This document shows positions 25,162 to 47,418 of a stretch of DNA of 64,000 bases, piece after piece. Within the stretch, counting starts at the first letter, position 1. Each line of letters starts with the position of its first letter. The stretch comes from an uncultured Clostridia bacterium. Lineage in GTDB: Bacteria > Bacillota > Clostridia > TANB77 > UBA1234. The translations under genes and the position numbers were made by a program. Below the pieces are notes generated by a model. It searched no databases. It saw nothing but the letters and a program-made list of their open reading frames with translations, and had not been told where the DNA came from. The stretch lies in the NCBI GenBank assembly GCA_944393265.1, contig CALXZO010000002.1, forward strand, positions 5,264 to 69,263. The letters are read 5' to 3'.

Positions 25162-25324
25162 ATCCACGACAAAATAATTTACATACAACTCTTTGTGTAT
25201 CAACTATATTGACCAACCATATACATTATGGCGGTGAGAAGTGGATGACTTCTTCTTGAACAGCTCTTATTATAATATCATCCAATGTTCTTGTCAAGCA
25301 CAAATTTTGTTTGCAGCAATTATC

Positions 25325-43400: not shown

Positions 43401-44143
43401 GCGTCAACAGAAGGCATCTCTCCAGGTCTTAGCCTTTTATATATTTCTATTAAAGCTTCTTCCTCCGTTTTAATAGGGTCTTTAGCAAGAGTGGCCACTA
43501 TCCTTTCATCTTCTCCAAAAAGTTCTAAAATTTGGCTGTCAGTTGCAATTCCTATTGCTCTTAAGAACAATGTAACTGGTAGCTTTCTAGCCTTATCAAT
43601 TCTTATATTAAATACATCATTAGAATCCGTTTCGAACTCAAGCCAAGCTCCTCTATTAGGCATGATAGTAGCAGTATAAAGTTTCTTACCCAATTTATCA
43701 TATTCTCTTGCATAATAACATCCTGGAGAACGCACAAGCTGTGATACTATTACTCTTTCAGCACCATTTATGATGAATGTTCCATAATCAGTCATTATAG
43801 GGAAGTCACCCATAAATATTTCTTGCTCCTTAATTTCTCCAGTTTCTCTGTTAATAAGTCTAACTTTAACTTGCAGTCTCGTAGAATATGTAGTATTTCT
43901 GGCTTTTGCCTCCTCAATTGTATATTTAGATTCCTCATTAAAATGATAGTCCACAAACTCAAGTATAAGCTTGCCAGAATAATCTGAAATTGGTGAACAT
44001 TCAACTAAAACCTCTTTTAATCCCTTAGTTACAAACCAATTATAGGAATCTTTTTGAACCTGAATAAGATTTGGCATTTCTATAACGTCTTCAATATTAC
44101 CAAAATACATTCTACTAGTTTTTTCATTCTTCACTTCACGCAT
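40451..44143 (-). CDS. rpoB: DNA-directed RNA polymerase subunit beta
   Basis: 1230 aa with canonical beta-subunit blocks and an acidic C-terminal tail. Confidence 0.97.
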
Positions 44144-44562
44144 AAAAACTAATCACCCCATCATTTAAATTCATCATACTTAAGATTTACTTCACATTTC
44201 ATAGCATTTTTAGCTTTCAATTCACTTAAAACACATATGTCGCTACTCTTTTGTTCCGTAAGGTTATCTCTATGTTTCTTGCGTCAAAAAAGTTATCACT
44301 AGGGTTGACATAAAGATAAAAAGAAACGACAAAAAGGCAATTAGCGAAATTATGAAATTTGCTAATTACCTTCTATGTTATTTATCTTTTTTCTCTATCA
44401 TATGATAACTTTTTTATATTAATCAACCCTTACTTAATACATTATCGACTGGTATTATATCAAATGTATTTTAAACATGTCAATAGTATTTATGAATTTT
44501 ACTAAAACTATATTGAAGGTTAATCAAACATATATCTATCCCCATGTTTATTTTAAAAAATA

Positions 44563-44590
44563 CAGGGTGGAAAATTTAATTTCCATCCTG
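44563..44590 (-). terminator. Terminator of the small ORF (CAGGGTGGAAAA / TTTTCCATCCTG, then a T-run on the minus strand)
   Basis: Hairpin directly after the stop codon of the 58-aa ORF. Confidence 0.55.
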
Positions 44591-44633
44591 CATTTCTTTA
44601 GGGGTTCTTGCATCCAAATAAAATTTGAGATGT

Positions 44634-44810
44634 TTACTTTTTTATTGCTCCTTCCTCTTCTAATCTAGAACGTATTACTTCCGATGTGTTTGGATTTGTG
44701 GCTATTGCATATCGTACCTTCCAATTTTTGTCGAAAGATAACTTATTTAGCTTTTCTTTCGATGTTTCACAGTTTTCTGCCAATCTCATCCGTTTACTAA
44801 TACCCATCAT
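44634..44810 (-). CDS. Small protein (58 aa: MMGISKRMRLAENCETSKEKLNKLSFDKNWKVRYAIATNPNTSEVIRSRLEEEGAIKK)
   Basis: Below the ORF-track length cutoff. GAGGAGG RBS 6 nt upstream. Its own consensus promoter and terminator. One HEAT/PBS-lyase-like repeat. Confidence 0.55.
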   Translation of the reverse strand: MMGISKRMRLAENCETSKEKLNKLSFDKNWKVRYAIATNPNTSEVIRSRLEEEGAIKK

Positions 44811-44891
44811 TGTAGCCTCCTCACAATTTTTTTGAGTATTGTCAGAGAAAAAACAAATTTTCCCCTTCTCACGAACTATATTTCCGGTGAC

Positions 44892-44928
44892 ATTATATAT
44901 TAGGTTACAAATTGTGTCAATTTGTAAC
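44892..44928 (-). promoter_or_regulatory. Consensus sigma-A promoter (TTGACA-N17-TATAAT) with its -35 embedded in a perfect 25-bp palindrome GTTACAAATTG-TGT-CAATTTGTAAC (44904-44928)
   Basis: Read from the reverse complement. Operator-like 11-3-11 palindrome overlapping the -35. Drives the 58-aa ORF. Confidence 0.6.
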
Positions 44929-45336
44929 TTTATACTGTTTCATTTATTGCCAATTTTTTATTTTGTTATATTATCTTTCTACCCATATTCTTTCTGTATA
45001 ATTTACCTATTTAAATTTTCTTTCTTTTATGTTATTATTACAACACTTTTGATTACCTCCGATATTTGTTTTGTTTTTGTCAACCAACATCGTACCATAT
45101 GTAATATTATGTATCTTTTTTGTTTATCCTACTTGCTCATTTAATTTTATCATTTATAAAATACAATGGTACTAAAAAAATGAACCTTGCATCATTTCTA
45201 CTCAAAGTTCATTTTCTCCGAGGGCTTATTACAGCCCAATATAAAAGCTTTTAATAACATGGATACGTTTTTGTTTCCCATGGGATAAAATAGGATACCC
45301 GCCACGCGCACTTGCACGTGACGGGTATTATTGTGT

Positions 45337-45600
45337 TTAGTTTTTTCTCCTCTTGTTTACTAACCAGGATGCAAACATGAGCACAATAACAACCAAAATG
45401 GCTATTCCACCCGTTTTCAAGATTTCCTCTAAACGGGTGACCACGGAAAATGCTCGAAGAGCATCATCCTGTATTGCCCTCCAGGCAGTAACGAGCAAGA
45501 TCAACAAAAAATGTGAGACCACCAATCCTGCCCATATTGCCAGAAACCGCCCGATCCATCTGACCTTACTTGTCTTTCCAGCCATTTCCTTCTCCTCCAA
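45337..45600 (-). CDS. Small two-TM membrane protein (87 aa); the gene is distinctly more GC-rich than its surroundings
   Basis: MEEKEMAGKTSKVRWIGRFLAIWAGLVVSHFLLILLVTAW...GGIAILVVIVLMFASWLV. GC is about 45-47% against a ~30% background. A GC-rich terminator hairpin lies at 45293-45335. Confidence 0.5.
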   Translation of the reverse strand: MEEKEMAGKTSKVRWIGRFLAIWAGLVVSHFLLILLVTAWRAIQDDALRAFSVVTRLEEILKTGGIAILVVIVLMFASWLVNKRRKN

Positions 45601-45661: not shown

Positions 45662-47245
45662 TCATCTTTTCTCAAAAATATTATATATCATCTTTGCCAC
45701 TTCTGCTCTCGTTACATTTCTTGTTGGCCTATATGTATTATCTAAATATCCGTTTATTATCCCCTGCTGCTGTAATTTTTTTATATACTTATATGCCCAA
45801 TCTTCGCTACTTACATCTGAAAAATCCACAATTTCCTCATTTGTCACTATATTGTCTTCTAAAAGAGATGACAATATTTTTGCGATTTCAGCTCGCGTTA
45901 TTGGCTGTTCTGGTCTAAATGTATAATCAGCGTACCCTTCAACAATTCCCAACTCTGTAATTTCATTTATCTCTTTAGATGCCCAGCTCTCTTTCGTATC
46001 AATATAATATTCTTTTTCCGTAGTTGCACTCCTATCAAGTATTCTACAAAGCATTGCAGCTACTTCTGCTCTCGTAATATACGCTTCCGGATCAAATTTG
46101 TTTTCGCCCTTTCCTTCTACCCATCCTTTTTCTTTTAAGAAAGCTATTGCTTCATTTGCCCAATAACTACTACTCACATCTTGAAATGCTCCTTCATCAT
46201 CAATTATGTATTCCTTAAAAATATCCCACATACTTTTTACTTCCATTCCAAGCCTCCAAGTACCAACGCCTTTTATATTATATTTATCAACCAAATTAAG
46301 CTTAGCTCTAAGACTATCTTCATTTTCATACCAAATAACATATGTTCCGGTATTTAATATCTTTCCATATATTTTAGGCTTTTTGTCGCTACTTTTTATC
46401 TTTATAACAGCTTTTACAGATTCCGTTTCTTTATCATATGTAACTGTACTTTCATAATCATTTACTAATGTTTCTATTTTTTCGAGTGAAATTGCCTGTC
46501 CGCCATAAGACGCTCCTTCTTTCCAGTATCTCCCATATAAAGGAATTCCCATCACGATTTTTTCACAATCAACATATCTCAACGCATATTTTATTGAATC
46601 TTCTACAAATTTTATTCCAGCAACGCTTCCTGCCTCTCCACCCTCAAAATGTTCATCATATGTCATAATCATAAGATAATCAGCATATTTTGCAAGTTCG
46701 GCATAATCATATGACGCATGCCAACCGCTAGTCCAGTTATAAGGGTTTGCAGCCACGCTTACAACGACCATTTTTTCACTAGATAACTTTTCTCGAAGCT
46801 TTCTCACAAAGTCGCTGTACTTTGTTCTTTCCTTTTCAGAAACATTTTCAATATCTACGTTTACTCCATCCAAATTATATTTTTCGATGGCATTTACAAT
46901 ATCTGTTGAGAGCTTATCTGAATTATTAAGTGCGGCTTTTCCAACTGCTTTATCCCAGTGATTACTAAGAAATGGTACTACTTTAATTCCTTGTGAATGC
47001 ATATTATTAACTAAGTTTATATCTACTGTGTTTAATATTAAGTTTCCATTTTCATCTATATCAAAATAGCTTGGTGAGACTTCATTTAATGTATTTTGAG
47101 TCTCATCAATCATCGATATATAATTTCCGCTACCATATAGATATGTCATATTGTACATTTTAGCATCGACTTCAATTTGCCTCAGAAAACAAAGTACCCC
47201 CACTAATAAAAAACATATTATGTATTTATATTTATTTATTTGCAT
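45662..47245 (-). CDS. Glycoside hydrolase family 18 (chitinase-like) protein with three C-terminal SLH domains
   Basis: DGVNVDIE catalytic motif. Signal peptide MQINKYKYIICFLLVGVLCFL. Three SLH repeats (..ITRAEVAAML.., ..ITRAEIAKIL.., ..VTRAEVAKMI..). Confidence 0.8.
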   Translation of the reverse strand: MQINKYKYIICFLLVGVLCFLRQIEVDAKMYNMTYLYGSGNYISMIDETQNTLNEVSPSYFDIDENGNLILNTVDINLVNNMHSQGIKVVPFLSNHWDKAVGKAALNNSDKLSTDIVNAIEKYNLDGVNVDIENVSEKERTKYSDFVRKLREKLSSEKMVVVSVAANPYNWTSGWHASYDYAELAKYADYLMIMTYDEHFEGGEAGSVAGIKFVEDSIKYALRYVDCEKIVMGIPLYGRYWKEGASYGGQAISLEKIETLVNDYESTVTYDKETESVKAVIKIKSSDKKPKIYGKILNTGTYVIWYENEDSLRAKLNLVDKYNIKGVGTWRLGMEVKSMWDIFKEYIIDDEGAFQDVSSSYWANEAIAFLKEKGWVEGKGENKFDPEAYITRAEVAAMLCRILDRSATTEKEYYIDTKESWASKEINEITELGIVEGYADYTFRPEQPITRAEIAKILSSLLEDNIVTNEEIVDFSDVSSEDWAYKYIKKLQQQGIINGYLDNTYRPTRNVTRAEVAKMIYNIFEKR

Positions 47246-47418
47246 ATGACTCGCTCCTTTACAATTATCTCTTAAGATAATTGTAAATACTAAAAAGAAG
47301 CGTATCAATGCAAAAAAGATGGGTGCTTTTCCATTTTTACCCAGTTATTTTTTTAATTACTATCTTTTCAATAAGGTCAAATGATGTTATAATCCCTTAT
47401 TGTTAGGAGTGAGGAGTT

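Follow-up and report, generated by a model that had tools for sequence, protein, structure and literature searches.

A probably real small gene of two tandem LRV repeats upstream of rpoB in an uncultured Clostridia bacterium

Introduction

Upstream of rpoB in an uncultured low-GC Clostridia lineage lies a 58-codon open reading frame (ORF) that is framed by a promoter, a ribosome-binding site and a terminator, and whose promoter is overlapped by a perfect palindrome. Does this ORF represent a gene, what kind of protein would it encode, and might the palindrome control it? We addressed these questions in a stretch of 64,000 nucleotides with 32% GC, here called the window, for which a first-pass annotation had been made from the sequence alone. 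This annotation had proposed a tightly regulated small-protein gene whose product resembles one HEAT/PBS-lyase-like repeat. On balance, we favor the interpretation that the ORF is a real, independently transcribed and lineage-specific small-protein gene, which is probably expressed, and which would act through protein contacts and be gated at the palindrome.

Results and Discussion

Anatomy of the transcription unit

On the minus strand between positions 44300 and 45200 we found, in reading order, a palindrome, a promoter, a leader, a ribosome-binding site, the 58-codon ORF and a hairpin with a U-tract. The promoter TTGACA-N17-TATAAT (44892..44920, minus strand) is of the SigA/Sigma-70 type and matches the consensus at 12 of 12 positions, with the -35 hexamer at 44920-44915, a spacer of 17 nt and the -10 hexamer at 44897-44892. 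Taking transcription to start about 7 nt after the -10 hexamer, a start near 44885 is predicted, and the 5' UTR would then measure about 75 nt (44811..44885) rather than the roughly 80 nt that had been given for it before. This leader is without significant structure (fold z-score -0.28). It contains a Shine-Dalgarno sequence GAGGAGG at 44822-44816, one of three occurrences of this motif on both strands of the window, located 5 nt before the ATG at 44810. The coding sequence (44634..44810, minus strand, 58 aa) runs from this ATG, which is the first start codon past the upstream in-frame stop, to a TAA at 44636-44634.

The ORF is followed by an intrinsic terminator (44555..44598, minus strand; dG -21.4 kcal/mol, z -7.8). 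A GC-rich hairpin (44590-44563) with the arms CAGGAUGGAAA...UUUCCACCCUG is preceded by an A-tract and followed by a U-tract with the tail UAUUUUUU, so that a stable, GC-containing hairpin and an immediate U-tract, the two features by which an intrinsic terminator is recognized, are both present on the transcribed strand. A consensus terminator scan listed only the plus-strand version of this element because of one A.C mismatch in the hairpin on the minus strand. The ORF with the peptide sequence originally quoted, its ribosome-binding site, the promoter and the terminator (44598-44555) were all recovered as the first-pass annotation had described them.

Promoters with a perfect 12/12 match were found three times in the 64 kb, against an expectation of 0.12. 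The other two precede rpoBC (44483..44454) and the infC-rpmI-rplT operon (25297..25269). Judged by its hexamers and spacing, the promoter of the small gene would fall into one class with these two, whose operons are among the most heavily expressed in the window. The rpoBC promoter lies 70 nt downstream of the terminator of the small gene. On the other side an AT-rich spacer (44929..45294, 26% GC) without a convincing gene separates the palindrome from the terminator of an upstream membrane-protein gene (45328-45295).

We considered a riboswitch or other leader element in the 75-nt 5' UTR and rejected it, as the predicted structure did not exceed that of shuffled sequences and no Rfam match was obtained. 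The Rfam 15 covariance models gave no match at gathering scores in the whole window, and a permissive search of positions 44100-45400 returned only sub-threshold matches of 17-22 bits, with cut-offs at 54-100 bits.

A palindrome covers the -35 hexamer

The palindrome noted by the first-pass annotation is a perfect 25-bp dyad with 11-nt arms and a 3-nt spacer (44904..44928), which extends imperfectly to arms of 17 nt (44898-44934). It reads GTTACAAATTG-TGT-CAATTTGTAAC on the plus strand and GTTACAAATTG-ACA-CAATTTGTAAC on the minus strand (44928..44904), and spans about -43 to -19 of the promoter. The -35 hexamer does lie inside it, as had been stated, but does not form its exact center, being made up of the final 3 nt of one arm and the 3-nt spacer. 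Consensus -35 and -10 hexamers are hence found together with a dyad-symmetric site that overlaps the core promoter. No second copy of the palindrome occurs in the window with up to 3 mismatches, none of 100 shuffled sequences contained a match, and the half-site GTTACAAATTG did not recur in the 64 kb with up to one mismatch.

Judged by its geometry, the most economical reading of this palindrome is a candidate operator for a dimeric repressor. The tight regulation by an ideal dimeric operator that the first-pass annotation had proposed is likewise a reading of this geometry. Promoters that are repressed by a dimeric protein at a palindrome in the -35 and spacer region resemble the present one in having a perfect dyad over -43 to -19 of a consensus promoter. 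The small gene differs from this class in that its site came without a cognate regulator, further copies or a match to an operator consensus known to us. Among the neighboring ORFs scanned, only SpoVT was recognized as a transcription factor. To our knowledge none of the operators of Rex, LexA, Fur/PerR, CodY, TnrA, BirA, FabT, OhrR, NrdR or CopY/BlaI fits the palindrome in both sequence and orientation.

A genome-wide search with the palindrome had been suggested earlier as a way to define a regulon. No regulon emerged from the 64-kb window, from viral contigs (0 matches) or from a metagenome collection, which does not contain the locus of the window itself and yielded seven stretches in five unrelated loci. 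Coding sequence harbors some of these stretches, and one belongs to a longer hairpin that resembles a terminator. In one of the five loci, from a higher-GC organism (L092/L093), identical 11-nt arms stand beside phased GTTACA/TGTAAC hexamers and a promoter-like unit downstream of pyrE. This locus shares no gene content with that of the window, and we regard the identity of the arms as a lead rather than as evidence.

The palindrome might also have nothing to do with repression, a possibility that we rate clearly below that of an operator and that is independent of the alternatives for the ORF discussed further below. It could then be a hairpin, either fortuitous or structural, or bind an activator or a nucleoid protein, or serve recombination or some other function at the level of the DNA, and the gene would be expressed constitutively and at a high level. 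Several observations are in line with this. A 12/12 promoter needs no activator, a repressor is postulated from geometry, and the same arms occur in the unrelated metagenomic contexts just described, including coding sequence and a terminator-like hairpin. Two more 11-3-11 palindromes, likewise perfect but unrelated in sequence, occur in the window (58685-58709 and 58821-58845); they are intergenic and located near another promoter, upstream of a recD2-like gene, so that such dyads appear to be a recurrent feature of this genome. However, a perfect 25-bp dyad placed exactly over -43 to -19 occupies the classic position for steric repression, and its chance expectation in 64 kb is approximately zero. 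A role as an RNA element in this transcript is contradicted by its location upstream of the predicted transcription start; the palindrome is without a U-tract on the minus strand and reaches only -10.2 kcal/mol when folded as RNA or single-stranded DNA. Repression by a dimeric protein remains our preferred reading of the site.

The small ORF looks coding

A phmmer search with the peptide against 1.84 billion representative proteins returned 2,830 matches at E<=1e-3, 599 of them at E<=1e-10. The top matches listed were long proteins of 233-2244 aa, each of which was matched at 5-20 separate places, and this multiplicity is the signature of a repeat unit. When six of the matched proteins were scanned against Pfam, all six carried LRV (leucine-rich repeat variant) repeats (PF01816) far above threshold and five of the six also carried LRV_2 (PF25591).

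Codon usage pointed in the same direction. Scored against a codon table derived from 22 long window ORFs, the small ORF gave 0.25 bit per codon in its own frame, where 58-codon chunks of real genes reached 0.38 +/- 0.15 and spurious ORFs of 40-90 aa inside real genes -0.46 +/- 0.31. None of the 101 spurious ORFs attained the score of the small ORF, and its five alternative frames were all strongly negative. The ORF had been called unannotated, which was true of the ORF track available to the first-pass annotation; public gene calls already list the product, with the 58-aa protein predicted on all six contigs shown among the 23 contigs read with this sequence. The peptide is present without a name in NCBI, ENA and Logan sources, and samples carrying the species include ERZ17292905, ERZ28614030, ERZ24773261, SRR14620901 and ERR10610618. 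On four independent lines, namely homology, repeat architecture, codon usage and gene calls, the ORF looks coding. The proposal of a small-protein transcription unit is thus supported: the unit is self-contained, its signals are very good and the content of its ORF is protein-like, with LRV homology and native codon usage.

The peptide consists of two LRV repeats

The predicted protein has 58 aa, a mass of 6.7 kDa, a pI of 9.7 and a net charge of +5. Two LRV repeats of 24 residues each stand in tandem at residues about 7-53, with 6 residues of the ORF before and 5 residues after them. A profile of the matched stretches with the consensus RLAVAENPNTPPEVLEKLAKDKDWEVREAVASNPNTPEEILERLAED aligned without gaps to residues 7-53 of the peptide (RMRLAENCETSKEKLNKLSFDKNWKVRYAIATNPNTSEVIRSRLEEE), and the two-repeat alignment over these residues reads RlavAeNpnTppevLekLakDkdweVReaVAsNPnTpeeiLerLaed. 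The two-repeat profile, derived from 541 stretches matched in LRV proteins of the database, gave 75.8 bits, a score that is partly circular as the profile was seeded by this query. The same profile found nothing else in the six frames of the whole window, including both flanks of the ORF. The peptide accordingly shows the tandem 24-residue LRV signature and no long array, there being two repeats only and no other LRV-like sequence in any of the six frames.

In a Pfam scan the peptide remained below the Pfam gathering thresholds (PF25591 LRV_2, 12.2 bits vs 27, E 0.19; PF01816 not reported at E<=1), which is expected for only two, somewhat divergent repeats. A search of NCBIfam with the peptide gave no match. 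The HEAT model (PF02985) matched no more than residues 23-37, with 12.5 bits where 23.5 are required, and no PBS-lyase family was reported. The likeness to one HEAT/PBS-lyase-like repeat that had been suggested for the peptide was rejected on the basis of this sub-threshold HEAT score, of the LRV nature of the proteins found with the peptide and of the best hit of the derived profile, which was 1LRV. This profile, made from an alignment of the peptide with 38 homologous segments (A1), found PDB 1LRV with E 2.6e-15. It also found a 23-residue designed peptide, LRV_M3delta1 (PDB 6HQE, 52 chains in one entry), at profile positions 18-38. As read from its sequence, the peptide is two tandem LRV repeats of the PF01816 type.

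An AlphaFold model from the single sequence consisted of one long helix with a poor pLDDT of 69 and was discarded. With alignment A1 the model showed helices at residues 4-12, 18-24, 30-37 and 44-53 and a pLDDT of 93.7, a value that largely reflects the repeat family used as alignment and is no proof of the stability of the 58-residue fragment. A Foldseek search with this model retrieved 1lrv at rank 11 (TMq 0.50, rmsd 3.4, E 2.3), which is not significant at this query length. All matches of the fold search were alpha-solenoids, HEAT, ARM, alphaRep and CpcE/F structures among them, and none was significant. The basic charge was considered as a hint at nucleic-acid binding and dismissed, as the repeat core carries +2, which is within the range of the homologous segments, 27% of which are as basic or more so. 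Tryptic peptides of the protein include LAENCETSK, LSFDK and YAIATNPNTSEVIR.

The closest known system is the LRV family itself (PF01816 and PF25591 LRV_2), with the Azotobacter vinelandii protein (PDB 1LRV) as prototype. The peptide has the same 24-residue signature ..VR.aVA.NPnTp.e.L..La.D.dw.. twice in tandem, and two short helices per repeat are predicted for it in the alignment-based model. It differs from the family in standing alone with two repeats, whereas 1LRV has about eight, and in its length of 58 aa, where the listed database matches have 233-2244 aa with 5-20 matched stretches. It also has no capping sequence at either terminus, carries a net positive charge (+5, pI 9.7) and falls below the Pfam cut-offs. 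1LRV carries an N-terminal Fe-S domain. With the HEAT and PBS-lyase HEAT-like repeats (PF02985; phycocyanin lyase CpcE/F) the peptide shares the class of alpha-solenoid helical hairpins. However, the weak match to these covers only 15 residues, the repeat of the peptide measures 24 residues compared to about 31 positions of the HEAT model in Pfam, and its NPNTP turn motif is specific to LRV. Canonical HEAT repeats comprise about 40 residues.

The nearest precedent for a free-standing LRV unit are the designed single-repeat LRV peptides. Their assembly has reportedly been read as nanotubes. As in the present case, a very short piece of LRV forms an independent chain in 6HQE, and the 52 chains of the 23-residue peptide in this entry show that LRV units on their own are able to stack into assemblies. 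The designed LRV_M3delta1 peptide is synthetic and has one repeat with an optimized consensus, whereas the natural protein has 58 residues and two repeats; by analogy, self-assembly of the latter may only be inferred. The designed LRV peptides appear as reference 132 (Hughes et al. 2019, PNAS) in PMC8755899. A full-text literature search for the function of LRV proteins found nothing established, and its matches concerned almost only Leishmania RNA virus.

Conservation and genomic neighborhood

We screened one genome per GTDB species for the N-terminal part of RpoB. The best match was L007 with 87% identity, and all others were below 60%; further relatives were reached via RpoB fragments (L094/L095 with 85% and L096 with 81% identity). 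No LRV-like ORF was present upstream of rpoB in these three related species (87%, 85% and 81% RpoB N-terminal identity) or in 80 other Clostridia rpoB loci (about 0.95 Mb). An ortholog search of 5.8 billion protein clusters with a word index returned only the peptide itself. A lack of conservation in relatives had been named by the first-pass annotation among the findings that would refute its proposal, and such a lack was seen in part, with the ORF absent upstream of rpoB in the three related species and no ortholog found. As far as can be seen, the gene appears to be restricted to one species. Within this species, six contigs from different samples showed 2-8 differing positions to the window in 6.2 kb, none of them within the unit (diversity about 0.1-0.2%). 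With so few polymorphisms, and none in the unit, purifying selection (dN/dS) is not measurable within the species.

In the nearest relative, L007, the syntenic order comprises a YgjP-like gene (237 aa), a small membrane-protein gene, a terminator, and the rpoB promoter with its leader, without the small ORF. The small membrane protein is 42% identical to the product of 45337..45600 in the window. DNA homology between the two resumes only at 44464, inside the rpoB promoter, and the window has about 830 extra nt (45295..44465, 26-29% GC), which correspond to the AT-rich spacer plus the ORF unit. It further has an extra GH18/SLH gene (45662..47308). Of the two further relatives, L094/L095 and L096, one has ClpB and a membrane protein as upstream neighbors of rpoB, and the other a gene that is transcribed divergently. 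Rearrangements upstream of rpoB were seen in every one of the four related species; judging by these comparisons this region is evolutionarily fluid, and the position of the small gene beside rpoB is not conserved.

Searches of phage and plasmid collections with DNA and protein revealed no similarity beyond one marginal LRV match on a Calothrix plasmid, a PHROGs search gave only E 0.054, and no direct or inverted repeats flanking the unit were credible as mobile-element ends. An origin from a mobile element was rejected on these grounds, namely the missing phage or plasmid similarity and the lack of credible flanking repeats. Nor did we retain the idea that the ORF belongs to a longer LRV gene in decay, as the six-frame profile search of the window found no further LRV sequence.

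This neighborhood does leave room for a second, unlikely explanation, in which the ORF is evolutionary debris: the remnant of a larger LRV gene or a piece of foreign DNA, transcribed or not but without function, and with expression signals that would be incidental to an AT-rich intergenic insertion. The unit indeed lies within about 830 nt of AT-rich DNA (26-29% GC vs 32% in the window) that the nearest relative does not have, the ORF is found in one species only, the region is rearranged in all four related species, and LRV proteins typically form long arrays, with 233-2244 aa in the matches listed. However, LRV-like sequence flanks the ORF in no frame, so that decayed repeats beside it are missing. 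The ORF extends from 6 residues before to 5 residues after the two repeats, its codon usage is native, and the unit is without similarity to phage or plasmid DNA and proteins. A perfect promoter, a well-spaced, strong Shine-Dalgarno sequence and a strong terminator are furthermore very unlikely to have come together by chance around one ORF. That the functional product is instead an RNA, a small regulatory or dual-function transcript of about 330 nt in which the ORF is secondary, is very improbable: the unit does run from its own promoter to its own terminator at an sRNA-like size and the whole transcript folds better than shuffled sequences (z -3.7), but most of this value comes from the terminator (5' UTR alone z -0.28), Rfam yielded sub-threshold matches and none at gathering scores, and LRV protein homology and frame-specific codon bias are unexpected of a non-coding RNA.

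Proposed function and mechanism

For the small-protein gene that we favor, we infer the steps from transcription and translation to repression at the palindrome, and the way in which the protein works, as follows. The strong SigA-type promoter, whose intrinsic strength would equal that of the rpoBC and infC operon promoters, would give rise to a monocistronic mRNA of about 330 nt, and the strong Shine-Dalgarno sequence would support efficient translation of the 58-residue basic protein. The terminator would end the transcript before the rpoBC promoter and so insulate the unit. A dimeric repressor bound to the palindrome would block recognition of the -35 hexamer and would keep the gene off until a signal removes it.

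The protein itself would be a minimal alpha-solenoid of two uncapped LRV repeats with four short helices. As a two-repeat fragment cannot close a hydrophobic core, it would probably act by protein-protein contact rather than as an enzyme, either through self-stacking or by docking on a partner. A far more speculative extension, to which we attach little weight, is that of a recently born or captured, species-specific mini-solenoid. Its uncapped repeats might polymerize head-to-tail, or might cap or dock on a larger partner, conceivably the transcription machinery encoded next to it, with a burst of expression upon release of the repressor. If this were true, the protein would parallel in nature the designed LRV peptides that self-assemble, and would offer a tractable case for the origin of a new gene from a repeat module.

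Conclusions

The small gene is probably real and would encode a minimal, species-specific LRV protein that belongs to a known repeat class and comes with an unusually clean anatomy. The understanding of rpoBC regulation is unchanged by it, since the unit is insulated by its terminator and absent from relatives. For genome annotation the locus illustrates that a 58-codon ORF under common length cut-offs can be supported by repeat homology and codon statistics even without an ortholog. A repressible expression cassette for low-GC Clostridia could be built from the perfect promoter together with the perfect palindrome. If expressed, the gene would come with an unusually clear on/off promoter architecture and would be a clean case of a lineage-specific small protein made from the minimal unit of a widespread, functionally poorly understood repeat family, and its product could reveal the role of an isolated LRV repeat pair.

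Genes upstream of the small ORF

Upstream of the small ORF (the gene for the two-repeat LRV mini-protein) the window encoded on the minus strand for a small membrane protein of ~82-95 aa (45337-45600) that belonged to no Pfam family; a strong terminator (45328-45295) lay behind this gene. Its counterpart in the nearest relative's rpoB locus, L007 (5272-5557), was 42% identical, and the same place in the related locus L094 was taken by a 117-aa membrane ORF that was apparently unrelated. Between this gene and a YgjP-like gene the window further encoded for a glycoside hydrolase of family GH18 that carried three SLH domains (45662-47308, minus strand; 548 aa as an ORF, 527 aa in the gene calls of public contigs). 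The hydrolase gene was absent at the syntenic place in L007, which represents a second lineage-specific difference adjoining the small ORF.

Further palindromes and a recurrence of the small-ORF palindrome arms

Two other perfect 11-3-11 palindromes, AAGATTAACTT-N3-AAGTTAATCTT (58685-58709) and AAAATCAAAAA-N3-TTTTTGATTTT (58821-58845), were both located in intergenic DNA, upstream of the gene for a recD2-like helicase (57061..58653). The former lay directly downstream of a promoter-like site (TTGATA-N17-TATAAT). By our own estimate from base composition, chance alone would produce ~0.06 such dyads in 64 kb.

The 11-nt arms of the small-ORF palindrome were also found, identical and with the spacer AAA, downstream of pyrE in a metagenomic locus (L092, 7395-7461; same locus as L093) of an unrelated, higher-GC organism. 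These arms were followed by TGTAAC/GTTACA hexamers spaced ~21 bp, a further promoter-like site (TTGAAG-N17-TATAAT) and a unit of ~110 nt with a terminator at its end. The unit may represent a regulated small RNA.

rpoBC and its leader

Among public metagenomic contigs from related species, several had rpoB called as at least two separate genes, e.g. of 320 aa and 127 aa (L094, 7487-8925; also L095, L096 and L097), and the best matches among those listed in the RpoB search were all short split products (287-695 aa). These split calls probably reflect assembly frameshifts.

No Rfam family reached its gathering score in the whole 64 kb, and ARAGORN found neither tRNA nor tmRNA there. This was despite the presence of infC-rpmI-rplT, rplM-rpsI and smpB, at which ribosomal-protein leaders are known in many Firmicutes; in this deep-branching lineage such leaders may have diverged too far.

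The rpoBC genes, which were not preceded by rplKAJL, had in the window a 12/12 promoter of their own, followed by a ~310-nt leader (promoter and leader region 44144-44483, minus strand; counterparts L007 5655-6000, L094 7227-7486 and L096 116-331). The leader, without match to any Rfam family, started with the block GATAATGTAT, which was conserved across the four related species (window, L007, L094 and L096), and contained the further conserved blocks TACGGAA, CTTGAA and GGTGATT. Both the window and L007 showed a long-range pairing, AGGGTTGA...TCAACCCT (44410-44430 with 44301-44321), and a match of 44403-44415 to 44286-44298 at 13/13 positions. The region could represent a leader element of rpoB that has not been described before.
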